Shown here: in pieces, positions 21,828 through 38,785 of the stretch | Layout: the number at the start of each line of letters is the position of its first letter | Position numbering within the stretch: position 1 is the stretch's first letter | Origin: Rhodoferax sp. | GTDB lineage: Bacteria > Pseudomonadota > Gammaproteobacteria > Burkholderiales > Burkholderiaceae_C | Assembly (NCBI RefSeq): GCF_039922535.1 | Contig: NZ_JBDTEM010000147.1 | Span: forward strand, 523 to 64,522 | Reading direction: 5' to 3' | Length of the DNA: 64,000 nt | Notes under the pieces: generated by a model | The model's input: the letters and a program-made list of their open reading frames with translations, nothing else | Told to the model about the DNA's origin: nothing | Database searches by the model: none | Program-made: the position numbers and the translations under genes

Positions 21828-22424
21828 TCAGTGACCCACCTCCGAGGCGCGGGCCTGCAGAGCCTCACGCAGCGCCGGCGTATAGGCTCCGTCCACCAGC
21901 ACAAAAAGCATGCGGCACATGCGGCCCGAGCGGTTGGCCCAGGCGTGGTTGGTGCCGCGTTGCACCACCACATCACCCTGGCGCAGCAGGGTGGCGCTGT
22001 CGTCCAGCACCAGGGTCATTTCGCCGTCTAGCACCACGCCGTAGTCCACCGACTCGGTGCGGTGCATCAGCGGATGCGGGGAATCGACGCGCACAGTGGA
22101 CGCACTGGCATCGCCAATCTGCGTGAAGGCGTCGTGCATCGCAGCGGCACCGTGGGCCAGGAAGTCTTCGGTATCGGGCGGGATGTCCACGACACGTATG
22201 CGGGTGCCCGCCTGCGGCGGTGGCAAGACCAGCGCGCCCAGGGTCGGGTCCGCGCCGTTGTCTATCTGTGCGGGCGTGCTCTGGGTGGACCATATCTCGT
22301 GGAACACGGTGCCCGGAATTTTCTCGATCGCCACCACCTTGGGCAGCAGACCGGCCTCGCTGACGATGGCTTTGCCTTGGGCGTCATGCCCGGTGACGAT
22401 GCGGCGGATGGGATGAAATGCCAT
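21828..22424 (-). CDS. Cupin domain protein (FdeH-like)
   Basis: IRRIVTGHDAQGKA, MHRTESVDYGVVLDGE and QRGTNHAWAN. Confidence 0.9.
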   Translation of the reverse strand: MAFHPIRRIVTGHDAQGKAIVSEAGLLPKVVAIEKIPGTVFHEIWSTQSTPAQIDNGADPTLGALVLPPPQAGTRIRVVDIPPDTEDFLAHGAAAMHDAFTQIGDASASTVRVDSPHPLMHRTESVDYGVVLDGEMTLVLDDSATLLRQGDVVVQRGTNHAWANRSGRMCRMLFVLVDGAYTPALREALQARASEVGH

Positions 22425-22438
22425 GCTGTTTGCCACCG

Positions 22439-23566
22439 TCAAATGGGCGCGGCCAGGGCCATCAGCGTCTCGCGCATGATGCGGCCGTGCTCGGCCTTGT
22501 CGCCACCAGTGATCTCGATCTCGCCCAGGCGCACGGAGTTCTCTACCACCATGCGGCAACGCTCCCAGCGCCGCACCTGGAAGCGCTCCAACGCCGACTG
22601 CAAGCCGCCGTCCGTATTCAGCTCGTCGGCCAACACGATCGCATCCTCGATGCCAATGCAGGCGCCAGACGCCATATGCGGCGTGGTGGCGTGGACCGTA
22701 TCGCCAATCAGCACAACCCGGTTTTGGTACCAGGGCTGGGGCATGAGCAGGCTTTCCAGCGGGCGGAAGACGATTTGCGCGTCTGCGTTGATCTGGGCTC
22801 GCACGCTTTGCATCAGCGGGGCGGAAAATGGCGCCAACAGGTCGGCCAGCATCTGCGGAAACCGCTGCGGGTCCACGCGGTCATTGTTCGCCCGGTCTTC
22901 GGTCACGAACAGGTACATCTCCTCTTGCGACACGGCGTTCACACCGGTCTTGACCTTGGGGCCCAGCCACATCATGGTGCGCTGCACCTCGGCAGGCCGG
23001 GGCAGCACCGCCCGCCACACGCACTGGCCGCTGTAGGCTGGCTGAGGGGCATCCGGGAACAAAGCCTTACGCACCTGGGAATACAGGCCATCGGCGCCTA
23101 TCACCAGGTCATAGCGCTGCTGGCTGCCATCGGTGAATTCCACGTCCACACCATCGGCATCCTGGCGCATAGAGGTGAAGCTGCAGCCCAGCCGCACCTG
23201 GGCACCCGATGCGCGGGTGGCATCGGCCAGTATCTTGGCCAGCACCGGCCGCATGATGCCGCCGCCGCCGGGCACGTCCGGCCCCGCGATGCGCGGCGTG
23301 GGCAGGCTGCCGATCTGATGGCCGGTAGGGGTGAACAAGTCCACCCCATCGGCTGCGAAGCCCTGGGCCAAAAACGCATCCAGCACGCCCAGCGTGCGAA
23401 AGGCGCGCAAGGTAGCGCCGCCCAGGCTGATGCCCGCGCCGTAGGAGCGCCAGCCCGAATCGATCTCAACCACATCCACCGCGCAGCCCTGCTTGCGCAA
23501 CTGTATGGCTGCCGCCATGCCCGAGAACCCCCCACCAATGATCAAAATCTTGTGTGCTGCTGTCAT
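22439..23566 (-). CDS. FAD-dependent monooxygenase (FdeE-like aromatic A-ring hydroxylase)
   Basis: IIGGGFSG, IGADGLYS and LIGDTVHATTPHMASGACIGIEDA. Confidence 0.9.
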   Translation of the reverse strand: MTAAHKILIIGGGFSGMAAAIQLRKQGCAVDVVEIDSGWRSYGAGISLGGATLRAFRTLGVLDAFLAQGFAADGVDLFTPTGHQIGSLPTPRIAGPDVPGGGGIMRPVLAKILADATRASGAQVRLGCSFTSMRQDADGVDVEFTDGSQQRYDLVIGADGLYSQVRKALFPDAPQPAYSGQCVWRAVLPRPAEVQRTMMWLGPKVKTGVNAVSQEEMYLFVTEDRANNDRVDPQRFPQMLADLLAPFSAPLMQSVRAQINADAQIVFRPLESLLMPQPWYQNRVVLIGDTVHATTPHMASGACIGIEDAIVLADELNTDGGLQSALERFQVRRWERCRMVVENSVRLGEIEITGGDKAEHGRIMRETLMALAAPI

Positions 23567-23640: not shown

Positions 23641-23991
23641 TCAGTCGGCCGCTGCGTAAGTCGTGTCTATCAATCTCACATAACCCTGGACGTCTATCGC
23701 GTGGGCAACGGCCTGCAGCGACTGGCCCAAACACGGCCCCAGCGTGCAGGCCCCGGTATCCACATCAAACAGCGCACCGTGGGCAAAGCACACGATGGCA
23801 TCGCCCGCGTGGTTCAGGTACGCATCCTTGCGCCAGGCCATGGGGCTGTTGGCGTGCGGGCAGTTGTCACGGTACACCCGCAGCCCATCACCACAGCGCA
23901 CCGCAAACAGTGTGTCCCGGCCCGCCTGCCCGGGGTCAAAGCCGCGCGACGTGCCCGGAGGCACATCGTCCAGATGGCACAGCAGCGTCAT
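23641..23991 (-). CDS. Rieske 2Fe-2S ferredoxin (FdeD-like)
   Basis: CPH...CFAHGALF...G.C..GPC. Confidence 0.9.
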   Translation of the reverse strand: MTLLCHLDDVPPGTSRGFDPGQAGRDTLFAVRCGDGLRVYRDNCPHANSPMAWRKDAYLNHAGDAIVCFAHGALFDVDTGACTLGPCLGQSLQAVAHAIDVQGYVRLIDTTYAAAD

Positions 23992-24003: not shown

Positions 24004-24948
24004 TCAGCGCGCCGCACCGGGTGGTGGGCCACCGGATGGCGCCCACTTGTCGCGCTGCTGGAACAAGAATAGCTGCGACGCGTCCGCGCCCATGGGTGCC
24101 TCGCGGGCCAGCCATTCGGCGTCGTGCAGGTCCATGTCGGCGTCGTACTCCACATGGCAGCCCAGCGGGCTGTTGAAGTACCAAAACCAGTTGGAGCCAA
24201 AAAGATGGCGCCCCGGTCCCCAGAAGGACTGGTAACCCTTGTTGACGAAGCGGGTGCCGGCCAGCATCACCTCGGTAGGCCCGCCCATGTGGAAGGTGAA
24301 GTGCTCGCACCCCTTCATGAAAGGTGGCGTCTGGATCATGAACAGCGTGTGGTGGTCGGCCGTGCCGGCCGGGCGCAGAAACGGGCCCACACCGGTAAAG
24401 CGGTCGGTGCACACAAAGCCCAGGCGCTGGTAGAAGGCTTCGGCCTTGGCCGCGTCGGGCACGAAATACACCACGTGCGATAGGGAGCGCGGCAAGGCCT
24501 GCATGGCCGGCGTGACAGCCACCTGGTTGGCCGGACGCTGCGGCGCGGCGCCTGGTGCGTTGATGGTTTCAGCGGGCAGCTGGATAGACCGGCGCACAGT
24601 GAGCTGAAAGGCCAACGCAAAGCCCATGTCATCCACGGCCAGCACGCGGCCCTGGGCATCGCGGCGCACCTCGCGGTCGCGGCCCAGCTCGGCGGCAATT
24701 GCGTCCAGCGTCGCTGCGTCGGCCACGCCGTACACGGTCTCGCGCAGCATGCTGGCCGTGCCCATGGCAGGCGGCAGGCGGGGGTCGTCCTTATGGCGGA
24801 CTTCCACGGCCGTGCCGTCCAGCGCCTCGAAACGGCCACCTTCGGCGGTGACGCCCACCGGCGTCAGGCCGTAATCGGTCAGGTACTGGATACAGGCGGC
24901 CACGTCGTCCACGCCAAAGACCAGTGCATCGGGTCCAATAATGTTCAT
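24004..24948 (-). CDS. VOC-family extradiol ring-cleavage dioxygenase (FdeC-like)
   Basis: Two-domain VOC with metal ligands in LSHVV, DHHTLF/EHFTF, GPGRH and HVEYDAD. Confidence 0.85.
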   Translation of the reverse strand: MNIIGPDALVFGVDDVAACIQYLTDYGLTPVGVTAEGGRFEALDGTAVEVRHKDDPRLPPAMGTASMLRETVYGVADAATLDAIAAELGRDREVRRDAQGRVLAVDDMGFALAFQLTVRRSIQLPAETINAPGAAPQRPANQVAVTPAMQALPRSLSHVVYFVPDAAKAEAFYQRLGFVCTDRFTGVGPFLRPAGTADHHTLFMIQTPPFMKGCEHFTFHMGGPTEVMLAGTRFVNKGYQSFWGPGRHLFGSNWFWYFNSPLGCHVEYDADMDLHDAEWLAREAPMGADASQLFLFQQRDKWAPSGGPPPGAAR

Positions 24949-25004: not shown

Positions 25005-25835
25005 TCAGCCCTGCCCGGCATACAGCACCGCTTCCGTCGCCAGCAGGCCAAAGTGGCCCGATGCGGTAGCCAGGCCCTTGGCCACCAGCGTGTCGCGCAC
25101 CCAGGTCTGCCATTGCGTCCACAGGCTACGGGCGGCGGCCTCGTCGTCCAGCCAGAATTCATCGATGCCATCCAGCGGGGCCGTCGTGCCGGGTTTGGCC
25201 ATGGCATCGTTTTGCACATAGCGGCGCAACTTGGCGGCTACAGGCCAGGCCTGCAGCGCGGCGGCGCCTTGCTGCCAGGCGGCGCGGAATGCTTCGGGAT
25301 CGGCATCCGGTGCGCGCTGGATGCAGAAGAACAGCTTGCAGGCGCCCGCCAGCGGGGCGCGCTGGGCGACCACCTCCCGCTCGCGCACGGTAAGCGGCAC
25401 CACCGTGCTCTGGTCCACAAAGTTGTCTTCATCGCCCTTCAGGTTCTGCAGGTAGAACGGCGTTTGCAACGAACGACCCAGCGCGCCAAAGTCCGGGAAC
25501 CAGATCTGGGTGACGAAATCGCGGTTCAACGCAAATGGGTCGCTGCCCGGTGCGGAGCTGCGGTACTGCCCGTCGAACACCGCGTTCTGCACATAACGGC
25601 GCGGGGCATTCTGCGGGTCGGTGGCGATGTAGCGCAACACCATTTCGCCATGCACATTGCGGATGTGCTGGCGGTGTTCCACCATGCTGGTGCCGGGTCG
25701 GCGGCGGCCCAAGATCATCAGCTTCAAATCAAACGGCCCCGGGACCTGCGGCGCCGACTGGGCATAGTCCGAGGGTGCCGCACCCAGCGCCAGGGAAGCC
25801 AGCAGCAGGTGCCGCCGGTGGATCATTGTGTTCAT
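25005..25835 (-). CDS. Tandem EthD-like (dimeric alpha/beta barrel) protein with possible Tat signal
   Basis: Two repeats of K-L..RxP...F/H...RRYVQN...; N-terminus MNTMIHRRHLLLASLALGAA. Confidence 0.7.
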   Translation of the reverse strand: MNTMIHRRHLLLASLALGAAPSDYAQSAPQVPGPFDLKLMILGRRRPGTSMVEHRQHIRNVHGEMVLRYIATDPQNAPRRYVQNAVFDGQYRSSAPGSDPFALNRDFVTQIWFPDFGALGRSLQTPFYLQNLKGDEDNFVDQSTVVPLTVREREVVAQRAPLAGACKLFFCIQRAPDADPEAFRAAWQQGAAALQAWPVAAKLRRYVQNDAMAKPGTTAPLDGIDEFWLDDEAAARSLWTQWQTWVRDTLVAKGLATASGHFGLLATEAVLYAGQG

Positions 25836-25840
25836 CTAAA

Positions 25841-25885
25841 TACTCCTATTTTTATAGCTGCTTGCGCACGTATTACCTGCGCCAT
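25841..25885 (-). repeat. Repeat copy inside the island that supplies the EthD gene RBS
   Basis: Minus strand TGGCGCAGGTAATACGTGCGCAAGCAGCTATAAAAATAGGAGTA, followed by TTTAG-ATG. Confidence 0.7.
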
Positions 25886-27042
25886 TAGGCAGTTCGACCA
25901 CCTAATGTTTCGGCCACCCAGTCGGCGATGTAGGCACCGGCATTGGCGCTGTTGTCGAAGCTGCTGTGCTGCACCCCGCCCTCGCGGTCGGTGAAGATCT
26001 TCAGCTCGCGTTTCGGGCTGTTGACCAACTGCTCATAGGTGGCATGCGCCCACTTCAGCGGGATCTGAGAATCCTTTTCGCCATGGGTCACCAGGAACGG
26101 CACCTTGATGCGGTCCAGGATGCCGTCCAGATGCACGTCCTGCGCAATGCGCATGAAGTCGTCGATGTTCTTGGCGCCCCAGACCCAGCAAACGTGCGCC
26201 CAGTAGTGCGGAACAGGAAGATTGCCTTCCTTGGCCAATCGTTTAGCCTGCACGTCGCGCCAGTCGTGGTTGGCACCCCAGACCACACCCATGGCAAAGC
26301 GCGGCTCGAAGGCCACGGCGCGCGGGCAGTAGTAGCCGCCGAGCGATACGCCTTCCATGCCGATGCGCTTGGGGTCCACATCGGCGCGGGTTTCCAGCCA
26401 GTCCACTACGCGGCTGGCCCAGTGTTCGCTGTCAAAGCGCGCAGTCAGCCCGCGCAGACGCAGCGCATCGCCGGTGCCCGGCTGGTCGATGATCAGCGAT
26501 GAAACGCCCCGCTTGGCCAGCCAGCCCGGCAGGCCCACCAGGTACTTCATCTCCTTGGTCGAATCCAGGCCGTTGACCTGCAGCAGCAGGGGTGCCGGTC
26601 CCGAAGTGCCTTCGGCGTGCACCAGCAGGCCCGAGAGAAAGCTGTCGCCGTAGGGGATCTGCACCCGCTCGCAGTTGTCGCGGGCCAGCGCAATGCCCTT
26701 GGAGAATAGTTCCTCGAAACGCTGGTACAGCGCGATCCGCCCGGGCGCGCCGTGGGCCTGCAGGCGTTCGCAGGTCAGCAGGTAGTTGGCCGCGCGTTTG
26801 TATTTTTCACCGGCAGACAGCAGGCGGCCTGCGGCCTCGTCTTCTTCGGCCAGGCCGCACAGCTTCTCGGCCATGTGTTGCCAGGTTTCGCGGAAGGCGG
26901 CGGTGCCTGCGGCATCGGGCTGTTTGGCAGCCTCTTGTAGTGGCTTGCACATGACCTCGATTTCACCGATGCGCGCGCCCATCTCCAGGGCCAGGTTGAC
27001 GGACAGGTCCCAGACGTAATTGGTGGGGAAGTAACGGAACAT
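25885..27042 (-). CDS. Alpha/beta hydrolase, 2,6-dihydropseudooxynicotine hydrolase-like C-C/ester hydrolase (FdeB-like)
   Basis: NGLDSTKE, DQPGTG, GVSLGGYY nucleophile elbow, HGEKD and GGVQH. Confidence 0.88.
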   Translation of the reverse strand: MFRYFPTNYVWDLSVNLALEMGARIGEIEVMCKPLQEAAKQPDAAGTAAFRETWQHMAEKLCGLAEEDEAAGRLLSAGEKYKRAANYLLTCERLQAHGAPGRIALYQRFEELFSKGIALARDNCERVQIPYGDSFLSGLLVHAEGTSGPAPLLLQVNGLDSTKEMKYLVGLPGWLAKRGVSSLIIDQPGTGDALRLRGLTARFDSEHWASRVVDWLETRADVDPKRIGMEGVSLGGYYCPRAVAFEPRFAMGVVWGANHDWRDVQAKRLAKEGNLPVPHYWAHVCWVWGAKNIDDFMRIAQDVHLDGILDRIKVPFLVTHGEKDSQIPLKWAHATYEQLVNSPKRELKIFTDREGGVQHSSFDNSANAGAYIADWVAETLGGRTA

Positions 27043-27064: not shown

Positions 27065-28252
27065 TCAATGGGCTACAGCGGGTGCGGACGCGGCCTGCAC
27101 CACACCGGGCGAAAGATGCGCAGCGCGGCGATAACACAGCCAGGACACGGCGCAGACCAGTACCGCGGCCAAGCCGATGGATGGCGTGCCAAAGCCCGCC
27201 ACCAGCACGCCGCCCACCACCGGACCAATCGCAGCCCCGCTCATCAGCATGGCGGGTGTCAGCGCCACCGCGCGGCCACTGGCGTCGTTACGCGACAGCC
27301 AGCCGAAGACAAAGGTATGGGTGAAGATCATTGGCGTCACGAACAATGCGGTAGCCACCGCATACATCGCGAATCCGCTACCCCAGGCCAGAGCCACGGC
27401 CAGTCCGGCCTGCACCAGCACGCCGCCTGCGGCTGCGCTGAAAGCAGGCCAACGCCGCTCGGTCAGCGCAGCCAGCACCGGCGGCAAGAGGTTGATAAAA
27501 CCCAGCACTACCAGCACTACCAGCACCACCAGCACCCGGTCGCCAAAGCCGCGCTCGGTACCGATGCGCTCGGCAAAGCTGAACACCATGGACTGGGTGA
27601 CGGCCATCAGCGTCAGGCCGGCAATTGCCCACCAAACCGGTGCGGCAATCGGCTGCACCTCGCGCGGTACCGGCTTGGCGCTGCCATCCACCGCCGTGGG
27701 TCGGGGGAAAGCCAGCGCTGTACCCAAGGTAGCACAGGCCATCAGCGCGGCAAACATGGCGAATAAAGCCACGCCGCCGTGCTGCGTCACCATGCTCTGG
27801 GCCACGCCGATGAACACGATGCCGGACACGCCCAGGCCAATGCTGACAATGGCAAACAGGCGGTGTGGCCGGGCACTACGGCCTATGGTGCCGTGCACGA
27901 ACGACAAGCCGGTTCCCGCACCCAACCCGGCCACCGCGTGCAACACCGTCATGGCGCCCACGTGGGTGGTCTGGGTCATTGCAGCAAAGGCGATAAAGGC
28001 CAGCGCATAGCCCAGTGGCGCCGCGCGCCAGGGCGCATACCGGTGAAAGCGTGGCGCAAACACCAGGCTGGCCAGCACGGCCGCCGCCAGATAGGCTGTG
28101 ACCATGGCACCGGCCTGCGGCGGGCTGAGATGGTATTGGCCTATCAAGGCGGAGCCCACCCAGACGGGCAGCGCCACCAGGTCCACCATGCCGGCCACAT
28201 GGGCCAATAGCAGGATGGCGCGGCCCTGCCAATGCTCGGTATCTGTTTTCAT
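27065..28252 (-). CDS. MFS transporter
   Basis: About 12 hydrophobic helices with MFS-like spacing. Confidence 0.85.
   Translation of the reverse strand: MKTDTEHWQGRAILLLAHVAGMVDLVALPVWVGSALIGQYHLSPPQAGAMVTAYLAAAVLASLVFAPRFHRYAPWRAAPLGYALAFIAFAAMTQTTHVGAMTVLHAVAGLGAGTGLSFVHGTIGRSARPHRLFAIVSIGLGVSGIVFIGVAQSMVTQHGGVALFAMFAALMACATLGTALAFPRPTAVDGSAKPVPREVQPIAAPVWWAIAGLTLMAVTQSMVFSFAERIGTERGFGDRVLVVLVVLVVLGFINLLPPVLAALTERRWPAFSAAAGGVLVQAGLAVALAWGSGFAMYAVATALFVTPMIFTHTFVFGWLSRNDASGRAVALTPAMLMSGAAIGPVVGGVLVAGFGTPSIGLAAVLVCAVSWLCYRRAAHLSPGVVQAASAPAVAH
27502..27536. repeat. 9-bp tandem repeat (CCAGCACYA x ~4) within the MFS gene
   Basis: CCAGCACTA CCAGCACTA CCAGCACCA CCAGCACC encodes VLVVLVVLVVL. 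Confidence 0.8.
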
Positions 28253-30639
28253 GCTGTTGTCTCCGTGGCGGCCGTCTGCGCGGCGGGTTTGAGTAGGAAG
28301 TGGGCCAACGCGGGCAGCAGGATCAATGCACCCAGCATGTTCCAGAGGAACATGAAGGCCAGCAGCAAACCCATGTCGGCCTGGAACTTGATAGGGCTGG
28401 CCACCCAGGTGATGACGCCAATCGCCAGCGTCACGCCGGTCAGCATCACCACCTTGCCGGTGAACAGCAGCGCCCGGTAATACGCCTGCGACAGGCTAGC
28501 CCCGGCACGCAGCTGCGCCAGGGTGACGCTGAGGATGTACAGCGCGTAATCCACGCCTATGCCCACACCTAGCGCAATCACCGGCAGCGTCGCCACCTTG
28601 ACGCCCATGCCGAAGGCCACCATCAGCGCCTCTGCCAAAAACGATGTCAGCACCAGTGGCAGCACCGCCACCACCACCGCGCGCCAGGAGCGGAAGGTAA
28701 TGAAGCACAGCAGCACCACCGCGCCATACACCATCAGCAGCATCTGGTGCCAGGCATGTTTGACGACGATATTGGTGGCCGCCTCGATACCGGCATTGCC
28801 CGCCGCCAGCAGAAACTGCACGTCCGCTGTGTCGTTTTCTTTGGCGAAGGCTTCCACATGCTCAACCACGCGGGTCAGGGTGTCGGCCTTGTGGTCGCGC
28901 AGGTAGACGTACAGCGTCAGCAGGCCGCAGCTGTCGTTGTACAGCCCACGCGGTGCGCCAGCGGTCACGGTGTTGAGCATGTCCTGGTTGTTCAGGAACT
29001 CGTACCACTTGGGGTTGCCCTCGCTCAGGCCCGTCAGCACGCGGCGGTTCAGCAGTGCCAGAGTGTTGGTGGACTCCACGCCGTCGAGCTGGCGCAGCTG
29101 CCACTCCAGCGCATCCACCTTGTTCAGCGTCTCGTACTGGGAGCACTGGCCTTCGGGCGTCTTGACCATCACGGCCAGCACGTCACTGCCCGCGCCATAG
29201 GCGCTGTTGATGAAGGCCACGTCGCGGTTGTAGCGGCTGTCGGCGCGCAGCTCGGGAGCGCCCGGGTCCAGGTCGCCAATCTTCAGCTGCGACGCCACCA
29301 GCGCACCGGCCACGCCCAGCAGCACGCCACCGGCCACGGCCGCTGTCGCCCAGCGGCGCTGGGTAAAGCGGTCCAGCCAGGCCCACAGCGGGCTGCGCGC
29401 CGCGCCGCTGGCATCGCCCGCCTCGGCCCGTAGGCTGCGCTGCGCGGCAGCGGGGCTGACGCCGGTGTAGCTGAGCAAAATCGGCAGCAGGATCAGGTTG
29501 GTGAAGATCAGCGCCGCCACGCCCAGGCTGGCCGCCAGGGCCAGCTCACGGATGGCCTGGATGTCGATCACCAGCAGCACCGCAAAGCCCACGGCATCGG
29601 CCAGCAGCGCCGTCAGCCCGGCCAAAAACAGGCGGCGAAAGGTAAAGCGTGCCGCCACCAGGCTGGGCATGCCACGGCCTATGTCCTGCATGATGCCGTT
29701 CATCTTCTGCGCGCCGTGGCTCATGCCGATGGCAAACACCAGGAACGGCACCAGGATGGAATACGGGTCGAGCTGCTGGCCCAGCAAGGGCAGCAGGCCC
29801 AGTTGCCACACCACCGCCACCATGGACGCCGCCACCACCAGCACGGTGGAACGCACACAGCGGGTGTAGGCAAACACCATCACGCTGGCAATCGCCACCG
29901 CCAGCGCAAAGAACACCAGCACCGCCTGCACGCCGTCGATCAGGTCGCCCACGATCTTGGCAAAGCCGGTGATGTGCACCGACACCCCTTGTGCGCTGTA
30001 CTTGGCACGCAGCAGCTCCAGGCGTTGCGACAATGCGCGGTAGTCCATCGCATTGCCCTGGGCATCGCGGGTCAGCAGCGGCACAAACAGCACGCTGGAG
30101 CGCCGGTCCAACGCCACGGTCTGGCCGATCTCGCCCGAGCGTTCGATATTCGCTGCCAGTTGCTGCAGGCTGGCTGCGCCGCCGTCGTAGCCCTCCGGGA
30201 TCACCGGGCCTCCTTCCAGCCCATCCTCGGTCACACCGACCCAGCGGGTCGATGGCGTCCAAAGCGACTTCATGCCCACGCGGTCCACGCCGGGTACCAG
30301 GAACACTTCGTCGCTGATCTTGCGCAGGGTCTCCAGATAGCTCGCGTCGTAAATACTGCCTTTGGGGTTGGCCACCGCAATGCGCAAAGCATTGCCCAGG
30401 CCGCGCAGCTCGCTTTGGTGCTGCAGGTAGTTCTGGATATAGGGATGGTGGCCGGGGATGGTCTTCTCGAAACTCGCATTCAAGTCCAGACGGGTCGCCT
30501 GCCAGCCCAGCAGCAGCGTGACCAGCGCGCAGATGCAGACCACCCACAGGCGGTGGTTGAACAGCAAGCGCTCCACCACCGAGCCAGATTGTGTATTGAA
30601 TGCCGCTGCTGGGGGCATGGGTGATGTTGCCGCCATCAT
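28249..30639 (-). CDS. RND/MMPL-family exporter-like protein (partner of DUF1302/DUF1329/YCF48)
   Basis: Two TM clusters, AIGMSHGAQKMNG and GIGVDYALY. Confidence 0.9.
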   Translation of the reverse strand: MMAATSPMPPAAAFNTQSGSVVERLLFNHRLWVVCICALVTLLLGWQATRLDLNASFEKTIPGHHPYIQNYLQHQSELRGLGNALRIAVANPKGSIYDASYLETLRKISDEVFLVPGVDRVGMKSLWTPSTRWVGVTEDGLEGGPVIPEGYDGGAASLQQLAANIERSGEIGQTVALDRRSSVLFVPLLTRDAQGNAMDYRALSQRLELLRAKYSAQGVSVHITGFAKIVGDLIDGVQAVLVFFALAVAIASVMVFAYTRCVRSTVLVVAASMVAVVWQLGLLPLLGQQLDPYSILVPFLVFAIGMSHGAQKMNGIMQDIGRGMPSLVAARFTFRRLFLAGLTALLADAVGFAVLLVIDIQAIRELALAASLGVAALIFTNLILLPILLSYTGVSPAAAQRSLRAEAGDASGAARSPLWAWLDRFTQRRWATAAVAGGVLLGVAGALVASQLKIGDLDPGAPELRADSRYNRDVAFINSAYGAGSDVLAVMVKTPEGQCSQYETLNKVDALEWQLRQLDGVESTNTLALLNRRVLTGLSEGNPKWYEFLNNQDMLNTVTAGAPRGLYNDSCGLLTLYVYLRDHKADTLTRVVEHVEAFAKENDTADVQFLLAAGNAGIEAATNIVVKHAWHQMLLMVYGAVVLLCFITFRSWRAVVVAVLPLVLTSFLAEALMVAFGMGVKVATLPVIALGVGIGVDYALYILSVTLAQLRAGASLSQAYYRALLFTGKVVMLTGVTLAIGVITWVASPIKFQADMGLLLAFMFLWNMLGALILLPALAHFLLKPAAQTAATETTA

Positions 30640-31709
30640 GGTGCCGTCCCCAATGGCACGGCGATCGCACCGCGTACCGTCAGCGCCAGCAGCCGTCCAT
30701 CGGTCAACGGCAAAACGCCAGCGGGCGAAGGCAGCGCTGCGCCAGGCAGCAAGCTCAGAGTACCGTCACGCAGGGCAAACAACTGCCCGCCCTGGTTGGC
30801 CAGCACAGCCCCCTGCCCCGCGCGCAATGCCGACGCGGTGAATGAAATCGGCGCAGCCGCCGCAATGGCCAACCAGGTGGTGCCTGCATCGGTGGAGCGC
30901 CATGCATTACCGCGCAGACCGGCCAGCACGATCTCGCCATGGGCGGGCAGTTCGGCCGTAAAAAAGCTGCCCTGGTAGGGCGTGGTCAGCCGGGTGAAGT
31001 GTTGGCCAGCGTCTTGCGATTGCAGCACCAGACCCTGCTCGCCAGCGATCACCACGGTGTTGCCCTGGGCGCGCACGGTGTACAGGTGCAAGGCCTTGGG
31101 GTTGTCCAGATGCTGGCCCCAGGGCTTCCAGCTGTGGCCGCCGTCTTCGGTCATGAATGCCAGGTTGTACGCACCCACCACGATACCGTGCTGGGCGTCA
31201 AAGAAATGCAGGTCCAGCAAAGGCTTGTCGGCACCGTCGGCCACCAGGCGCTGGGCGTTCTTCACCGCGGCGGCGTCACCGCGGGCCTGGGCCTCGTCCA
31301 ACACCAACTGGGCAGCGGCCTTGCCTTCCAGTTGGCGCACCCAGGTCTCGCCACCGTCCACCGTGGCCAGCACCACGCCGCTGTGGCCCGTGGCCCAGCC
31401 ATGCTGGGCATCCACAAAGCGCACGGCGGTCAGCGTCACGCTGGTGGGCACCTGGGCCTGGCGCCAGTGGGCCGCCGCATCGTCTGACAGCAGCACAATG
31501 CCGCGCTCGCCTACCGCTACCACACGCGACCCTGCCAGGGCCGCGCCCAACAACACCGCCTGGGCGGCTTGCGGGCTGACCAAGGCAGGGCGGTCCAGCG
31601 CACTACCCACTGGTGCAGCCCATGCTGCGGGCAGTGCCAGCGCAGCGGCGCACACCAGCAGGGCACGCAGTCGGCCCGTTTCCGGTGGCTTCAAGGAAAT
31701 CAGAAGCAT
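30636..31709 (-). CDS. YCF48-related beta-propeller (BNR repeat) protein
   Basis: VGERGIVLLSDD, TVDGGETW, TEDGGHSW and STDAGTTW Asp-box repeats. Confidence 0.9.
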   Translation of the reverse strand: MLLISLKPPETGRLRALLVCAAALALPAAWAAPVGSALDRPALVSPQAAQAVLLGAALAGSRVVAVGERGIVLLSDDAAAHWRQAQVPTSVTLTAVRFVDAQHGWATGHSGVVLATVDGGETWVRQLEGKAAAQLVLDEAQARGDAAAVKNAQRLVADGADKPLLDLHFFDAQHGIVVGAYNLAFMTEDGGHSWKPWGQHLDNPKALHLYTVRAQGNTVVIAGEQGLVLQSQDAGQHFTRLTTPYQGSFFTAELPAHGEIVLAGLRGNAWRSTDAGTTWLAIAAAAPISFTASALRAGQGAVLANQGGQLFALRDGTLSLLPGAALPSPAGVLPLTDGRLLALTVRGAIAVPLGTAP

Positions 31710-31722
31710 GTTGTCCTACGCC

Positions 31723-33087
31723 TCAGCGAACGCTGTCGCCAGCCATGGCATCGGGCGAGAAAGTGGAGTCGGCGTAGCGTGGCTGCAGCGTGTATTGCGC
31801 CGACTTGCTGTTGTACAGGTCACCCACATAGGCGGTGCCCGACAGCAGGTCGTTGAAGCCGAAAGCTCCGGTTACCGTGCCTGGCAGATCGGGCGCCACA
31901 AAGGTGGCGGTCCAGATGGACTTCCAGAGCTGGCCGTTGGAATCCCAGCGGTCGGCCAGCACACAGGCCCAGGTGTCTTCGTCGCAGTAATAGCGGCTCT
32001 TGGCGGCAGGGTGGCGTTGACCGGCCCGCAGGCTGGCATTCACCACCCAGACCCGGTGCAGCTCCCAGCGCATGAAGTCGGGATTCACGCCGTTCTTGCC
32101 CAATACCTCGGCATCGGTCTTGGCTTGTAGCAGGCGGTTGCCGTTGTAGGGGATGAACATCTCCTTCTTGCCTGCCAGCTTGAAGTCGAAGCGGTCCAGC
32201 TTGCCGGACCAGGTCTGCACCTCGTCAAAGCTCATCAGCCCGGCGGTCACTGGCGACGGCGTATCGCAGCAAGGGTTGGGCAGCTTGCGCACACGGCGCT
32301 GGCCGGTCAGGTAGACCCAGGACTGGGTCTTGGCCGGGTCGATCTGGTCGCGGCCGGTGATGGCTTCGCCCGCGCGTATCGGAGGGCCCACGTTGACCAG
32401 GCGGATCAGTTGGGTCTCGGGTGCCTTGGCAAAAGACTCCAGCGTGACGTCGGGGTAGTAGTACGGAATCTGGAAGTCGATGACGCCGTCGGTGGTCATC
32501 ACCGGCTTGCCGTCTGCCGTGATCTGGTACTGGGTGACCTTGGACTGGAAGGAAGTACCGCGCCAGCGCAGCATGTGGTTCCATATCACTTCGGCGCCCA
32601 CTTTGGGCAGGGGGAAAGGAATACCGCCCACCACATCGATCGGCACATCGCCCTGCAGCTTGCCACGGGTAGCGTTTTTCTGCGTGTTGTCGTAAACCCA
32701 CTGCGGCGCGGCGGCGGTGCGGTGCGTCTTGTACACATCTACCCGGTAGTCGGGGTATTTCTTCAGCAAAGCCATCACGCCGTCGCTGAGCTTGTCGGCG
32801 TATTGGTCGGCGTTCTTGCCGGTGATGCTGGTCAGCGGCTTTTCGTCCTTGAACGGGTCGCCGCGGCGGCCGCCGGCGTTGTCGCCAGCAATCGCGGTGG
32901 TCAGGCCGCCGGTCCAGGTGGGAATGCTGCCGTCTTTGTTGGCGGCTTTTTCAGCACCCAGCGGTGTCAGCTCGGTCTTCAGTTTCGCGGCCTCTTCCGC
33001 GCTGACGGCGGCCCAGCTTGGCAGGCTGGTGGCAGCGCCCATCAGCAGCCCGCAGGCCGCCAGCAGGGTATGGTGGTTTTTTTTCAT
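31723..33087 (-). CDS. DUF1329 periplasmic protein
   Basis: AVSAEEAAKLKTELTPLGAEKA, YKTHRTAA, GQRRVRKLP and WELHRVWVV. Confidence 0.92.
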   Translation of the reverse strand: MKKNHHTLLAACGLLMGAATSLPSWAAVSAEEAAKLKTELTPLGAEKAANKDGSIPTWTGGLTTAIAGDNAGGRRGDPFKDEKPLTSITGKNADQYADKLSDGVMALLKKYPDYRVDVYKTHRTAAAPQWVYDNTQKNATRGKLQGDVPIDVVGGIPFPLPKVGAEVIWNHMLRWRGTSFQSKVTQYQITADGKPVMTTDGVIDFQIPYYYPDVTLESFAKAPETQLIRLVNVGPPIRAGEAITGRDQIDPAKTQSWVYLTGQRRVRKLPNPCCDTPSPVTAGLMSFDEVQTWSGKLDRFDFKLAGKKEMFIPYNGNRLLQAKTDAEVLGKNGVNPDFMRWELHRVWVVNASLRAGQRHPAAKSRYYCDEDTWACVLADRWDSNGQLWKSIWTATFVAPDLPGTVTGAFGFNDLLSGTAYVGDLYNSKSAQYTLQPRYADSTFSPDAMAGDSVR

Positions 33088-33130
33088 GGTGTCTCCGGTA
33101 ATTCCAAATGGGTAGGGGTTAGCGGGGGGG

Positions 33131-34843
33131 TCAGAACGTGCGACGCAGGTTCAATGAGATGAAGTTGCGGTCGCCCAGCGGGTTGCCGTCGCTGAACTGC
33201 CCTGTGCTGTAGTCGTTAAAGGGCTTGCTGGTGCCGATGTAGCGGGTGTAGTTCAGCCCGAATTGCCAGGTATTGCGGAAGTTGCCTTCAATGCCAATGT
33301 TGGCGCTGCCCGTGCCCTTTGGGCCCCAGGCGGTGACGCTGGAACGACCCGACAGGGTGTAGCGCAGGCCCACAGGCACGTTGATGTCCACACCGTCAAA
33401 CACCTGCCGGTAGGTCGGGGTGTAGACAAACTGCACGATGCTGGCGTCGCGGGTGCGGCCCTGGTCGATCTCGTTGTCCGGGTCGTTTTTATGCAGCACG
33501 CGGTTCCAGGCCAGCTCGGCCGCCAGGCCGCTTTCCTTGGCCAAGAAGTTCGGGCCAAAGCTGGCAATGGTGGACAGGTTGATGTGCGCGGTGCGTCCAG
33601 TCGGATACGCCGGCCGGGCCGTACCATTGGGGCCGAAATACACAGCGTTGTTCACATTCAGCGGCATGTTGTCGCGCAGCGAGGCTTCGGCGGACACATT
33701 GAAGTCACCCACCGAACGCGACACGCTGGCGCCTGCCACATCGATGTCGCTGCCGAATACATAGAACCAGCTGCTGTCCGTAGCGGGTGCACCGGGGTTC
33801 AGCCGGGAATAGAGCTGGCCAGTCTTATCGTGGTAACGCGCGTAGTAAAAACCCAGGTCGGTCTCGTCCAACCGCCATTTCGCCTGCAGGCCAAATTGGC
33901 CGCTGTTGCGTGGCTTGTCGTCTGCGCCTGGCTGGGCCACATAGTTGCCACCAATGCCGGGAATGGATGCCGGAATGCCGACAAACTCCGGCCCGGTAGC
34001 CCCCCAAGGCACATTGGCGGTGGAGAAATAGCTGCCGGCTGCAGGCACACGACTCTCCTTCCACTGGAATTGCACATAGCCCCCCAGGCTGAAGTTGGGC
34101 GCCACCTGCCACTGGCCCGACAGCTGCGGCACCGGAATGGCGATTTCCTTGAACTGCGCGTTCGGTGACGACAGCAGCTTGGACACGTCCGTCGGCCCCT
34201 GCGCAGCGGCAATGCCGTTGTCGCCAAAGAACAGGCTTTCGCCGTACAGCAAGCTGTGCTGGCCCAGCCGACCGCTGAGCTTGCCACCGTTGGCCAAGGT
34301 GGTGCTGCCAAACACGAATGCATCCATCAGCTCTGCCTTGCGGCCCGACTCCTCCTGGGTGTGGTCGGCGAACTGGTTGTAGGGTGACTGGCCGTTGGTC
34401 GGGTCGTTGGGCGCATCGGTGCCGCGCTGGTAGGCCCGGTCGTACCAGCCAGCGGCGCTGATCCGCAGGCCAAACCGGCCTTGGTACACCGCATCGAACT
34501 CGGACAACAGATCCAGCCGCTCCGACACAAAACCGCGCTGGCTGAAGTTCTGGTCGCCCGCATTGAAGTTGATGGCCTGCGGCGCACCCTGGGCGCTGAA
34601 AGACTGTGTCAGCGCCGGGTCCGCATTGCGCAGCCGGTACATGGTGCTGGCCTTGACCGTGTTGTCGAAGCGCAGGCTCAGGTCCGGGTTGCCGCTGTCC
34701 AGCTCCATGGACTGGGCGCCTTGCACGGCCCCCAGCGCCGCGCAGGCCATGGCGGTACGCGTCATCAGCTGAACGCGGGAATAAGGGGAATAGGGGCGCG
34801 GAGCCCGGGCGGACGGGGTCCGCTTCCATAAACGTGGGTGCAT
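33131..34843 (-). CDS. DUF1302 outer-membrane beta-barrel uptake channel (FdeA-like)
   Basis: LSLRFDNTVK, NAGDQNF, WGESLFF-like LYGESLFF and C-terminal ISLNLRRTF. GGAGA RBS before ATG 34843. Confidence 0.9.
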   Translation of the reverse strand: MHPRLWKRTPSARAPRPYSPYSRVQLMTRTAMACAALGAVQGAQSMELDSGNPDLSLRFDNTVKASTMYRLRNADPALTQSFSAQGAPQAINFNAGDQNFSQRGFVSERLDLLSEFDAVYQGRFGLRISAAGWYDRAYQRGTDAPNDPTNGQSPYNQFADHTQEESGRKAELMDAFVFGSTTLANGGKLSGRLGQHSLLYGESLFFGDNGIAAAQGPTDVSKLLSSPNAQFKEIAIPVPQLSGQWQVAPNFSLGGYVQFQWKESRVPAAGSYFSTANVPWGATGPEFVGIPASIPGIGGNYVAQPGADDKPRNSGQFGLQAKWRLDETDLGFYYARYHDKTGQLYSRLNPGAPATDSSWFYVFGSDIDVAGASVSRSVGDFNVSAEASLRDNMPLNVNNAVYFGPNGTARPAYPTGRTAHINLSTIASFGPNFLAKESGLAAELAWNRVLHKNDPDNEIDQGRTRDASIVQFVYTPTYRQVFDGVDINVPVGLRYTLSGRSSVTAWGPKGTGSANIGIEGNFRNTWQFGLNYTRYIGTSKPFNDYSTGQFSDGNPLGDRNFISLNLRRTF

Positions 34844-34927
34844 GCTTTGTCTCCGGTTTGTTGTCTTACGGTGGGCTGCAAATTGCGGTTTGCCCCGACC
34901 TGGAAACGGAATGTACGGAGGGGTAAA

Positions 34928-34976
34928 GCATTCGTAAAATGGATTCTTTCGATTCCACAAATCCACGCCACTAATA
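34928..34976 (-). promoter_or_regulatory. nod-box-like LysR binding site
   Basis: TATTAGTGGCGTGGATTTGTGGAATCGAAAGAATCCATTTTACGAATGC matches the rhizobial nod-box consensus YATCCAYNNYRYRGATGNNNNYNATCNAAACAATCRATTTTACCAATCY at 32 of 41 defined positions with no gaps. Confidence 0.8.
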
Positions 34977-34994
34977 CCAAGGGTTACCCCGAGC

Positions 34995-35903
34995 ATGCGA
35001 TTCAACAAACTCGACCTCAACCTGCTGGTGGCGCTGAACGCCTTGCTGACCGAGCGCAACATCAGCCGCGCGGCTGTGCGCGTGCACCTCAGCCAGCCCG
35101 CCATGAGCAATGCGCTGGCACGCCTGCGGGCTTATTTCGAAGATGAATTGCTGGTGCCATCGGGGCGCCAACTGATCTGGACACCGCGCGCCGAAGCGCT
35201 GGTGGAGCCAGTGCGCGAAGTGCTGATGCGCATCGACAGCACGATTGCCGTGCAGCCCCGCTTTGACCCAGCCACCGCCTCGCGGGCCTTCACCCTGCTG
35301 GTGTCCGACTTCACCACCACGGTCTTCGTACCCGCCCTGCTGGAGCGGCTGTACCACGAGGCGCCGGGCGTACGCATAGACCTGCGCATGCAGTACACCA
35401 ACCCCGCCGAAATTCTGGAACAAGGCGATGCCGACCTGCTGATCATTCCCGCCCAGTACGCCTCACCCGACCACCCGTCACAGCCGCTGTTTGAAGAAAA
35501 CTATATGTGCGTCACCTGGACCGGCAATCGGCATATCCAGGACAGACTGAGCTTTGAGGACTACCTGGCTGCAGGCCATGTGCTGGCCAATTTTTCCGGC
35601 GCTGCGCAGACACCGGCATTCGACGGCTGGTTTCTGGAACGCTTTGGCATCACCCGCCGGGTCGAAGTCACGGCCCCGACCCTGGCCGCCCTACCCAGCC
35701 TGGTCGTGGGCACCGACCGCATCGCCACCGTGCACCGCCGGCTGGCCGAGCGGGTGCGCCACCTGTTGCCCATCCGCATCTGGGAGCCGCCGCTGGAAAT
35801 CCCCAAGCTGGTCCAGATGCTGCAATGGCACAAATACCGCAACAACGACTTGGCCCTAGCCTGGCTGCGCAACTGCGCGCTCGAAGTGGGCGCGCAAATC
35901 TAG
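34995..35903 (+). CDS. NodD/FdeR-like LysR-family transcriptional regulator
   Basis: MRFNKLDLNLLVALNALLTERNISRAA...LSQPAMSNALARLR; divergent from the operon across a nod-box-like site. Confidence 0.92.
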   Translation: MRFNKLDLNLLVALNALLTERNISRAAVRVHLSQPAMSNALARLRAYFEDELLVPSGRQLIWTPRAEALVEPVREVLMRIDSTIAVQPRFDPATASRAFTLLVSDFTTTVFVPALLERLYHEAPGVRIDLRMQYTNPAEILEQGDADLLIIPAQYASPDHPSQPLFEENYMCVTWTGNRHIQDRLSFEDYLAAGHVLANFSGAAQTPAFDGWFLERFGITRRVEVTAPTLAALPSLVVGTDRIATVHRRLAERVRHLLPIRIWEPPLEIPKLVQMLQWHKYRNNDLALAWLRNCALEVGAQI

Positions 35904-37085
35904 TCAGTCCAGCGATGCCGCTGGGCCGAAGAATTCATAGCGGGTTTGCGCCTCGGGCACGCCCAATGCGCGCAACTGCTTTTTCACCTGGCGCATAAAG
36001 GGCTTGGGGCCCAAAAAATACGCGTCCACATCGCGCGAGGCGGGCAGCCACTGGGCCAACTGTTGCGGCTCCAGGTGGCCCACGGCATGCGGTGCGTCTT
36101 CAGAACCGCTGTGCTCGTCATAGGCATAAAAGCGCTGCAACTGCGGGTGCTTGGCCAGGCGCGCCTCGATGGCGTGGCGGAAGGCATGCACATGGCGATT
36201 GCGCGCACAGTGGATGAAGTGCACCGGCCGTGTGCCCTGCAGCGCCGCGTCCAACATCGCCAACGTGGGCGTGATGCCAACGCCGCCGCTGATCAGCACC
36301 ACGGGGCGCTCACCGGCCGCCAGCACGAATTCGCCTGCGGGCGGAAACAGCTCCAGCACATCGCCAACCTGTACCTGGTCATGCAGATGGTTCGACGCCA
36401 GGCCGCCAGCCTCGCGCTTGACGCTGATGCGGTAGTCCACACCATTGGGGGCGGCCGACAGCGAGTAGTTGCGGCGAATCTCCTGGCCGTTCACCATAAG
36501 GCGCAGGCCGATGTACTGGCCCGGCACAAATTCGGCCAGCGCGCCGCCGTCTTGCGGCTGTAGGTAGAACGAGGTGATTTCGCTGCTCTCGACCTCTTTG
36601 CGGGCCACGCGGAAGGCCCGCGCACCGCGCCAGCCGCCCGGGGCGGCAGCGGTATCGGCATAGATTTTTTCTTCGGCCCCGATCAGGATGTCGGCCAACT
36701 GGCCATAGGCCGCGCCCCATGCAGCGATGACTGTATCGGTAGCGATCTCGGCGCCCAGCACTTCGCGGATGGCGCGTAGCAGGCAGGCGCCGACCACGGG
36801 GTAGTGTTCGGGCTGGATCTGCAGCGACACATGCTTCTGGATGATCTGCGTCACCAGGCCGCCCAGCTGCTCCAGCTTATCGATATGCCGGGCGTACATC
36901 AGCACACCATTCGCCAGCGCGCGCGGCTGGTCACCGCTGGCTTGGTTCGCCTGGTTGAAAAACGGCCGTACCTCGGGGTGTTCGGCCAGCAGGATTTTGT
37001 AGAAATGCGTGGTCAGCGCCTCGCCGCCGCTCTCCAGCAGGGGCACGGTGGATTTGACGATGGCGCGTTGTTCAGGGGTCAGCAT
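35904..37085 (-). CDS. hmp: Flavohaemoglobin (NO dioxygenase)
   Basis: Globin domain (FNQANQ, IIQKHVSL, HYPVVG), FAD domain RRNYSLS and NAD domain LISGGVGITP. Confidence 0.96.
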   Translation of the reverse strand: MLTPEQRAIVKSTVPLLESGGEALTTHFYKILLAEHPEVRPFFNQANQASGDQPRALANGVLMYARHIDKLEQLGGLVTQIIQKHVSLQIQPEHYPVVGACLLRAIREVLGAEIATDTVIAAWGAAYGQLADILIGAEEKIYADTAAAPGGWRGARAFRVARKEVESSEITSFYLQPQDGGALAEFVPGQYIGLRLMVNGQEIRRNYSLSAAPNGVDYRISVKREAGGLASNHLHDQVQVGDVLELFPPAGEFVLAAGERPVVLISGGVGITPTLAMLDAALQGTRPVHFIHCARNRHVHAFRHAIEARLAKHPQLQRFYAYDEHSGSEDAPHAVGHLEPQQLAQWLPASRDVDAYFLGPKPFMRQVKKQLRALGVPEAQTRYEFFGPAASLD

Positions 37086-37151: not shown

Positions 37152-37207
37152 GGCCTACGGTCTATACAAATCAAGCACTTACGCTTTTACAGTATCTAAT
37201 GGATGCA

Positions 37208-37234
37208 GTCATAATGATCTTAAAAAATATCAGA

Positions 37235-37239
<5 letters not shown>
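37208..37239. promoter_or_regulatory. Two NorR-type sites (GTCA-N3-TGAC-like)
   Basis: GTCATAATGAT (37208) and ATCAGAATGAC (37229) are 21 bp apart with one mismatch each. The second overlaps the norR ATG. Confidence 0.65.

Positions 37240-38785
<1,546 letters not shown>

Follow-up and report, generated by a model that had tools for sequence, protein, structure and literature searches.

Does a sequence that resembles the rhizobial nod box, placed in front of catabolic genes, belong to a nodulation regulon, to a system for flavonoid degradation, or to neither? The question arises in a stretch of 64,000 nucleotides from a Rhodoferax sp. contig (NZ_JBDTEM010000147.1; hereafter the window, meaning the whole stretch), in which a putative 49-bp nod-box-like operator lies at 34928-34976 on the minus strand. 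On one side of it is the gene of a 302 amino acid LysR-type regulator resembling NodD and FdeR (34995-35903, plus strand), and on the other is a divergent minus-strand operon. We propose, with a probability of about 0.8, that the locus is a flavonoid-degradation switch of the type known from FdeR of Herbaspirillum seropedicae, in which an FdeR-like regulator and its operator drive the divergent operon. An earlier sequence-only reading had described a NodD/FdeR-like LysR with a nod-box-like operator, a divergent flavonoid-catabolic operon and no nod genes. This core is supported by the presence of fde orthologues and of homologous operators.

An operator of the nod-box type with a fixed promoter phase

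The minus-strand sequence of the operator (the reverse complement of 34928-34976) is TATTAGTGGCGTGGATTTGTGGAATCGAAAGAATCCATTTTACGAATGC. We scored it against the nod-box consensus YATCCAYNNYRYRGATGNNNNYNATCNAAACAATCRATTTTACCAATCY, which is 49 bp long and has 41 defined positions. The match is ungapped and covers 32 of the 41 defined positions, the figure first claimed for it, and none of the other positions, of the approximately 128,000 scored on the two strands of the window, reaches it. The second-best score (26) comes from this partly palindromic site when read on the opposite strand, and the best unrelated position scores 24. By an exact tail calculation, the probability of a score of at least 32 is 8e-12 per position at the window composition and 2e-10 at 50% GC, so that about 1e-6 to 2e-5 such scores are expected in the whole window. 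The site reads 5' to 3' toward the catabolic operon, which begins at 34843: its 5' (YATCCA) end is 18 bp from the LysR ATG at 34995 and its 3' end points to the minus-strand genes, in the divergent arrangement originally described.

The operator is bipartite. Its distal half-site, ATTAGTGGCGTGGAT (34961-34975, minus strand; box positions 2-16), has the form ATT-N9-GAT, includes a T-N11-A and is, as read from the sequence, the equivalent of the ATC-N9-GAT of the nod box; it is a candidate recognition site. The proximal half-site, ATCGAAAGAATCCAT (34939-34953, minus strand; box positions 24-38), has the form ATC-N9-CAT and is a candidate activation site.

How common is such an element? Scanning one genome per species, we obtained 80 loci encoding relatives of the regulator. 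In most of them fde-type genes adjoin the regulator in one of two layouts, either with the hydrolase first (Herbaspirillum, Paraburkholderia and some Variovorax) or, as in the window, with a DUF1302-DUF1329-BNR-RND module first. A nod-box-like element is found upstream of the regulator in 49 of the 80 loci, usually within approximately 100 bp and in the same orientation. These elements align without gaps in one register, both with each other and with the nod box, and yield the consensus TATTCAc..caTCgATaC..cGcATggAtacAAtCCATTTtaC.gAt.g, whose conserved core AATCCATTT has a C where the nod box has a purine. On a position weight matrix (PWM) built from the 49 loci, the window operator scores 52.4 bits and the next unrelated window position 1.5 bits; no second operator was found with this matrix in the 64-kb window, including the regions before the hydrolase and monooxygenase genes. 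The TATT...GAT columns of the distal half-site are conserved in the matrix and in close relatives, and the columns of the proximal half-site carry its highest information.

The site had been called near-canonical, which overstates the case. The S. meliloti pSymA nod boxes before nodA, nodF, nodL, nodM and nodH score 41, 40, 38, 37 and 36 on the same scale, and the weak box upstream of syrM scores 31. With its AATCCATTT core, the window site is a typical FdeR-family operator. It is among the more nod-box-like of the catabolic operators, only four of the 49 others reaching 32. A set of Pseudomonas loci (L052, L054, L056, L057, L069, L070, L075 and L076) has a diverged operator, TATCGCGTTTGCCGATAGGTCGCATCCCGACTCGCGATTAGTCA, which keeps ATC-N9-GAT and falls under the threshold of the family PWM; in these loci the dioxygenase and an IfcA-like monooxygenase come first and the hydrolase lies across the regulator.

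The promoter was placed by comparative phasing across loci and by the alignment of close relatives. Among the approximately 50 loci that share the element, a TAnnnT hexamer stands at offset +12 from the operator in 39 of 50, compared with none or one at each other offset from 6 to 19; the usual hexamers are TAATCT, TAACCT, TAAGCT and TACAGT. In the window the predicted -10 hexamer, TACATT (34910-34915, minus strand), is exactly 12 nt past the operator 3' end. Because the -10 is fixed at +12, a 17-nt spacer places the predicted -35 hexamer, TTTACG (34933-34938, minus strand), inside the operator at box positions 39-44, where the nod box has TTTACC. The activation half of the operator would therefore overlap the -35. 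Given this -10, the operator spans about -73 to -25, and the arrangement is that of a generic LysR divergent promoter, with a T-N11-A or interrupted dyad near -65, an activation site near -35 and a divergent regulator gene adjoining.

We aligned the intergenic region with those of four loci (L084, L085, L086 and L001, from metagenomes and one metagenome-assembled genome), which have the same gene layout and regulators 73-84% identical to that of the window. The only conserved blocks are the regulator start, GGGTAAAC, TATT, GATTT, GGAATCnAAAGAATCCATTTTACGAATG, TACAnT, and GGAGACA with the ATG of the first operon gene. The block GGAATCnAAAGAATCCATTTTACGAATG, part of the proximal half-site, is nearly invariant while its flanks diverge, and GGAGACA and the ATG are invariant; in the window these correspond to a ribosome-binding site GGAGAC at 34849-34854 and a start codon at 34841-34843, both on the minus strand. 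The 5' leader has diverged freely. The pattern is a clean phylogenetic footprint of operator, -10, ribosome-binding site and start codons. These data show a real, statistically significant and conserved operator, to which the -10 stands in a fixed phase.

Orthologues of the fde enzymes in the divergent operon

What does the operator face? Fifteen packed genes, all on the minus strand, run from 34843 to 18263 with gaps of at most 75 nt. Most of them have counterparts among the H. seropedicae fde genes. An alpha/beta hydrolase (25885-27042) is 80% identical to FdeB over 384 amino acids, an extradiol dioxygenase of the glyoxalase fold (24004-24948; Pfam: Glyoxalase) is 80% identical to FdeC, and a monooxygenase dependent on flavin adenine dinucleotide (FAD), of the flavonoid 8-hydroxylase type (22439-23566), is 66% identical to FdeE over 373 amino acids. 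A cupin (21828-22424), a cyclase-family hydrolase (20214-21023) and a fumarylacetoacetate-hydrolase family protein (19204-20202) are 73%, 88% and 70% identical to FdeH, FdeG and FdeI, respectively. More distant are a small FdeD-like Rieske protein (23641-23991; 52%), an FdeF-like MFS transporter (27065-28252; Pfam: MFS_1; 47%) and the last packed gene, which encodes an FdeJ-like protein of the NAD-dependent epimerase/dehydratase fold (18263-19204; Pfam: Epimerase; 47%). Sequence comparison thus shows the operon to encode orthologues of the fde enzymes of H. seropedicae, and places the regulator in the NodD/FdeR superfamily.

It is this enzyme set, and not the nod-box match, that is the evidence for flavonoids. 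The match had been offered as independent support for a flavonoid inducer, a status it loses because it follows from the conserved DNA-binding domain of the regulator.

The operon begins with four genes of another kind: a DUF1302 outer-membrane protein (33131-34843; PF06980, E = 7e-112), which also comes first in L001, L084-L086 and many other loci; a DUF1329 protein (31723-33087; PF07044, E = 2e-116); a BNR/YCF48-like beta-propeller protein (30636-31709; Pfam: PSII_BNR, E = 5e-26); and an RND/MMPL-family membrane transporter (28249-30639; Pfam: MMPL), 75-83% identical in many related loci. No homologue of FdeA was found in the 64-kb window, and this DUF1302-DUF1329-BNR-RND module (28249-34843) stands in place of FdeA, a Phenol_MetA_deg channel. 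The same module heads the operon in approximately 20 related loci (L001, L011, L023, L032, L037, L041, L045, L053, L078, L084-86 and others). Since it replaces FdeA and heads the operon in so many loci, the module may serve to take up flavonoids across the envelope.

Two further genes have no counterpart in the H. seropedicae operon: one encodes an EthD-domain protein (25005-25835; Pfam: EthD) and the other an SDR oxidoreductase (21035-21826; NCBIfam SDR models). The EthD protein, whose N-terminus resembles a signal peptide by eye, also occurs in L034, L036 and L058, which are Rhodoferax loci. Beyond the FdeJ-like gene and a gap of 270 nt lie, on the same strand, a pyridine-nucleotide-disulphide oxidoreductase (16661-17992), which is a possible reductase partner of the small Rieske protein, and a methyl-accepting chemotaxis protein (14735-16558).

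Comparison with known systems

The H. seropedicae comparison locus (L087) encodes a 309 amino acid LysR (P0139) and a divergent operon in the order Phenol_MetA_deg channel, hydrolase, glyoxalase-fold dioxygenase, Rieske protein, FAD monooxygenase, MFS transporter, cyclase, cupin, fumarylacetoacetate hydrolase and epimerase. This is the published order fdeABCDEFGHIJ, with FdeC as the dioxygenase and FdeE as the monooxygenase (bioRxiv 10.1101/2023.08.07.552369; PMC11303751). We identify the locus with the characterised FdeR system because the 3' part of the FdeR cloning primer P3 (PMC6548992 supplement), CTCCGTTGTTGTGCTTGTTC, is found in its intergenic region just upstream of the regulator, and because its regulator shares the start MRFNKLD with the published fdeR 5' end, ATGCGTTTCAACAAGCTCGAC.

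The FdeR system of strain SmR1 has been described in some detail (Marin 2013, 2016; Wassem 2017; as cited in PMC10799723). The FdeR footprint covers approximately 60 bp, its LysR-type transcriptional regulator boxes overlap the -35 and the UP element of PfdeA, and FdeR occupies its site whether naringenin is present or not and functions as an activator (PMC10799723). The operator fdeO has been delimited as 73 bp with RS, AS1 and AS2 sites (PMC12809279). The predicted location of the window -35 inside the operator agrees with the published boxes over the PfdeA -35 (PMC10799723). FdeR and its operator are published and have for years been in wide use as a biosensor, notably for naringenin (PMC10799723, PMC12809279), so the occurrence of such a pair outside rhizobia, which headed the sequence-only reading, is not new.

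The likeness to PfdeA is close. The H. seropedicae fdeR-fdeA operator, TATTGATGCCGTCCATATCATGAATCAAAACAATCCATTTGATCAATAT, scores 31 of 41 against the nod-box consensus and is identical to the window operator at 33 of 49 positions, in the same register and orientation and likewise adjoining the regulator start. In both loci a NodD-like LysR gene diverges from a catabolic operon, and a TAnnnT -10 stands at 12 nt (TAAGCT there, TACATT here). FdeB to FdeJ all have homologues on the minus strand downstream of the window operator, at 47-88% identity. There are also differences. The window regulator is 48% identical to FdeR and falls in a separate, well-supported clade; the window lacks FdeA, has the DUF1302-DUF1329-BNR-RND module and the extra EthD and SDR genes, and has another gene order. 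The distance from operator to regulator start is 18 nt with no Shine-Dalgarno sequence in the window, compared to 69 nt with GGAGAC in H. seropedicae.

The S. meliloti NodD/nod box pair shares with the window a homologous regulator and a homologous bipartite operator, whose two half-sites are of the ATC-N9-GAT type and equally spaced in both; rhizobial NodD is known to respond to flavonoids. The operator 5' end is 6 nt from the divergent gene for S. meliloti nodD1 and 18 nt from it in the window. Unlike the rhizobial boxes, the window operator faces catabolic genes rather than nodABC, and differs from the nod box in the family-typical C for purine in AATCCATTT and in its lower score (32 of 41 compared to 36-41). 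Downstream of the S. meliloti nod boxes there is no evident -10 phasing of the kind seen in the catabolic loci.

A third relative is the ifc isoflavone cluster of Variovorax sp. V35, also a root-associated member of the Comamonadaceae, which has homologous dioxygenase and hydrolase genes and in which 8-hydroxylation of the A ring precedes extradiol cleavage (bioRxiv 10.1101/2023.08.07.552369). The window monooxygenase is of the FdeE type and not of the IfcA type; the isoflavone-specific IfcA of Variovorax is just 36% identical to FdeE (bioRxiv 10.1101/2023.08.07.552369), and FdeE itself accepts flavanones, flavones, isoflavones and flavonols (PMC11303751). Loci with IfcA-like monooxygenases (26-41% identical) also carry NodD-like regulators and an operator of the window type. 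The words "LysR" and "NodD" each occur 0 times in the text of the ifc preprint (bioRxiv 10.1101/2023.08.07.552369), and regulation of ifc by a NodD-like protein is not discussed there.

The habitat fits these comparisons. Four rhizosphere metagenome runs contain 92-98% of the sampled words of 33000-37000, and the 90% cluster of the regulator holds proteins named Rhodoferax sp. and uncultured Albidiferax sp. A root-zone member of the Comamonadaceae is compatible with a flavonoid-catabolic role, and in soybean roots flavonoids enrich for this family (bioRxiv 10.1101/2023.08.07.552369).

Taken at the level of sequence, these comparisons indicate a system that works like FdeR/PfdeA and, in DNA recognition, like NodD/nod box. 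The features of an FdeR switch that can be read from sequence are present, including a nod-box-like operator overlapping the predicted -35 of the operon promoter, except for strict orthology of the regulator to H. seropedicae FdeR. Two defining features of NodD are missing: membership in its clade and, within the 64-kb window, control of nodABC.

The regulator and its place among NodD-like proteins

The regulator contains the Pfam domains HTH_1 and LysR_substrate. Its DNA-binding domain (residues 1-65) is 75% identical to that of H. seropedicae FdeR and 68-69% identical to those of S. meliloti NodD1 and NodD2, so the NodD-like N-terminus noticed earlier is real. The resemblance spans the full length of the protein (45% to NodD2 over 297 amino acids, approximately 43% to NodD1-3, 48% to FdeR) and is lower in the effector domain (residues 92-302), which is 40% identical to FdeR and 36% to NodD1. 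An unrelated pSymA LysR is 18% identical in both domains, compared with 65-75% among the DNA-binding domains of FdeR, NodD and the window regulator. The identity to the effector-domain structure PDB 9iib/9x6w is 37%; this structure, being approximately 80% identical to S. meliloti NodD1/2, is that of a rhizobial NodD.

Homologues of the regulator number in the thousands in the database, with many in Acidovorax, Massilia, Duganella, Collimonas and other Burkholderiales, and several are named "LysR family nod box-dependent transcriptional activator" by JGI. NCBIfam has no NodD or FdeR model, and the best match there, BsrA, is far under the cutoff.

Is the regulator an FdeR, a NodD, or neither? 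A neighbour-joining tree of 90 sequences (304 columns, Kimura distances, 60 bootstrap replicates) was rooted on the unrelated LysR. In the base tree the window regulator groups with NodD-like proteins and not with SyrM or a generic LysR, with a bootstrap support of only 35/60. It lies outside the NodD clade (S. meliloti NodD1-3 and the Bradyrhizobium protein of L064; 59/60), within which identities are 65-87%, compared to 43% between the window regulator and NodD1-3. Its own clade, which includes L084-86, L001, L002, L007 and a Massilia/Duganella group, is supported in 59 of 60 replicates, and FdeR pairs with an H. aquaticum protein (L042) in 60 of 60. By context and operator the window regulator is FdeR-like; it is not a strict FdeR orthologue.

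The catabolism-linked proteins form a group without NodD in 1 of 60 replicates; given the root, NodD is therefore nested among them, as it is in 59 of the 60 replicates. The sequence-only reading had raised the relevance of this locus to a catabolic origin of NodD signalling and had suggested a LysR phylogeny as a check. The nesting of NodD fits that idea; the tree does not settle in which order the window clade, the FdeR clade and NodD branched.

The NodD-clade regulator of L064 (Bradyrhizobium sp. SSBR45G; 7895-8885) is 64.5% identical to S. meliloti NodD1. The nod box beside it, 10 nt from the regulator start, scores 35 of 41, the best of all fetched catabolic-type loci, and faces a 536 amino acid FAD_binding_3 monooxygenase and an alpha/beta hydrolase rather than nodA or nodY. 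This regulator may be a NodD-clade protein in a catabolic role. We tentatively suggest that the window regulator represents a third lineage of the NodD/FdeR superfamily, distinct from both NodD and FdeR proper and retaining the ancestral nod-box-type operator and promoter geometry. Taken with the nesting of NodD among catabolic regulators and the L064 protein of its clade that faces an FAD monooxygenase, this would mean that the sensor, the nod box and the divergent layout first came together in flavonoid catabolism and were taken over for nodulation at a later time; the odds for this reading are somewhat below even.

A predicted switch and its alternatives

How might the switch work? By analogy with FdeR and other LysR-type regulators we infer that the regulator binds the operator, how it switches conformation, what induces it and where transcription begins. 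Most likely, a tetramer of the regulator would occupy the 49-bp operator with or without inducer, one dimer sitting on the distal ATT-N9-GAT (34961-34975) and the other on the proximal ATC-N9-CAT (34939-34953), where it would overlap the -35 TTTACG. A flavonoid aglycone in the effector domain, most likely of the naringenin/apigenin type to judge from FdeR, would then shift the proximal dimer and relax a bend in the DNA. RNA polymerase could now use the -35 TTTACG and the -10 TACATT across their 17-nt spacer, with a start predicted near 34903. The resulting minus-strand transcript of approximately 16.6 kb would encode the envelope module, the MFS transporter and the FdeB-FdeJ enzymes, and the flavonoid A ring would be hydroxylated at C8 by FdeE, opened by the extradiol dioxygenase FdeC, and the product processed further.

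Several observations weigh against an FdeR-type flavonoid switch. The regulator is just 48% identical to FdeR, belongs to a separate clade (59/60) and has an effector domain of approximately 40% identity; ligand specificity is therefore not confidently transferable. The first four operon genes have no known biochemical function. The promoter hexamers are weak: at 8 of 12 they fall under the tool threshold, and a generic sigma-70 and terminator scan of 34700-35150 made no call. A run search found no RNA run containing the region, and the locus is known here from sequence alone. Furthermore, the window clade has a Massilia/Duganella/Pseudoduganella sub-branch (L003-L006, L008 and L047) whose regulator genes lack fde neighbours within 8 kb and, in most of these loci, also an operator immediately upstream; a flavonoid switch can therefore not be predicted from membership in the clade alone. 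Among relatives from named genera, the regulators of this sub-branch come closest to the window regulator (65-69% identity). In L005, the regulator gene is downstream of, and on the same strand as, a gene for a LacI-family regulator, and is flanked by genes for xylose-isomerase-like TIM-barrel proteins and an MFS transporter; this setting would be that of a different regulon.

Might the regulator sense another signal, such as an isoflavone, a chalcone or dihydrochalcone, a ring-cleavage intermediate or another plant polyphenol, with the operon serving that substrate? Its effector domain (40% to FdeR, 36% to NodD1), its separate clade, the EthD, SDR and DUF1302 module genes that are extra relative to H. 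seropedicae, and the handling of isoflavones by similar enzymes in the related ifc pathway (bioRxiv 10.1101/2023.08.07.552369) all leave room for this. We nevertheless consider it unlikely. The monooxygenase is 66% identical to FdeE, compared with 36% for IfcA, the FdeB, FdeC and FdeG orthologues are 80-88% identical, and the breadth of FdeE, which takes flavanones, flavones, isoflavones and flavonols (PMC11303751), keeps flavonoids as the substrate class. It is very improbable that the regulator is a true NodD with a true nod box, serving nodulation genes elsewhere in the genome and controlling the catabolic operon as an extra regulon member. The operator score slightly exceeds that of the weak S. 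meliloti box upstream of syrM (32 compared to 31), and the DNA-binding domain is 68% identical to that of NodD1. Yet tblastn with S. meliloti NodA, NodB and NodC gives no match in the 64-kb window, in agreement with the absence of nodABC noted earlier; the regulator lies outside the NodD clade (59/60; 65-87% identity inside compared to 43%); the window holds a single such site; the host is a rhizosphere bacterium of the Comamonadaceae (Rhodoferax/Albidiferax-like); and the same regulator-operator arrangement occurs in dozens of non-nodulating genera. A nodulation regulon was rejected on the first two of these grounds.

The chance that the likeness is fortuitous, or the generic likeness of any LysR box, is practically negligible. 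The intergenic region is AT-rich (50% GC compared to 64% for the window) and T-N11-A is common to all LysR operators, features that could imitate a nod box with no relation to it. Even at 50% GC, however, a score of at least 32 has a probability of 2e-10 per position, and the match covers both half-sites at nod-box spacing. The elements of approximately 50 loci, the operator of H. seropedicae and the consensus of the nod box all fall into one 49-bp register, and the DNA-binding domains that would read these sites are 65-75% identical, compared to 18% for an unrelated LysR. The score probability, the shared register and the phylogenetic footprint led us to reject a chance match, and we return to an FdeR-type flavonoid switch as the preferred explanation.

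Other features around the operator

Between the operator and the LysR start is an imperfect palindrome, GGGTTACCC (34981-34989), of which the close relatives conserve GGGTAAAC. Of 50 loci, 28 have a GGGTT(A)ACCC-like element, defined by a loose pattern, approximately 4-10 nt from the operator toward the regulator (including L011, L019, L025, L030, L032, L034-36, L040, L049 and L058). It is phased with the operator; its distance to the regulator ATG varies from 20 to 157 nt. The ATG of the window regulator is 5 nt past the palindrome and has no Shine-Dalgarno sequence; for this reason the palindrome may be the regulator's own -10 region, so that the mRNA would be leaderless, or else a further site for protein binding.

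On the other side of the regulator, a flavohaemoglobin gene (35904-37085, minus strand; globin, FAD_binding_6 and NAD_binding_1 domains) abuts the LysR stop codon, and beyond it is a divergent open reading frame of 528 amino acids (37199-38785, plus strand) whose product, judged by eye, is reminiscent of a NorR-like sigma-54 activator. Together the two have the appearance of an ordinary nitric oxide-detoxification unit, unrelated to the flavonoid switch.

Implications

The FdeR switch is already known and is common in soil and root-associated Proteobacteria; the locus described here is another copy in a rhizosphere member of the Comamonadaceae. Wassem and coworkers reportedly found in 2017 that FdeR binds a rhizobial nod box in vitro and activates it in vivo, and that its proposed binding site is conserved in other bacteria. 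If so, the central point of the sequence-only reading is already in print. Four features set the locus apart: its regulator belongs to a divergent clade, the DUF1302-DUF1329-BNR-RND module takes the place of FdeA, an EthD and an SDR gene are added, and only a very short stretch, free of a Shine-Dalgarno sequence, separates the operator from the regulator start.

The practical value is modest. The locus offers a second, divergent FdeR-like pair of sensor and operator (48% identity; 33 of 49 positions), a candidate for an orthogonal or differently tuned flavonoid biosensor. It also connects flavonoid catabolism, through a defined, predicted promoter, with four envelope genes (the uncharacterised DUF1302/DUF1329/BNR/RND module). 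Should the regulator indeed represent a third lineage, its relatives would be flavonoid sensors with ligand ranges unlike that of FdeR, and the DUF1302-DUF1329-BNR-RND module would be a flavonoid uptake system. In a wider context, the alignment of approximately 50 loci in one operator register, the fixed phase of the -10, and the nesting of NodD among catabolic regulators support the idea, present in the literature as is the FdeR system itself, that nodulation signalling borrowed a catabolic flavonoid switch.

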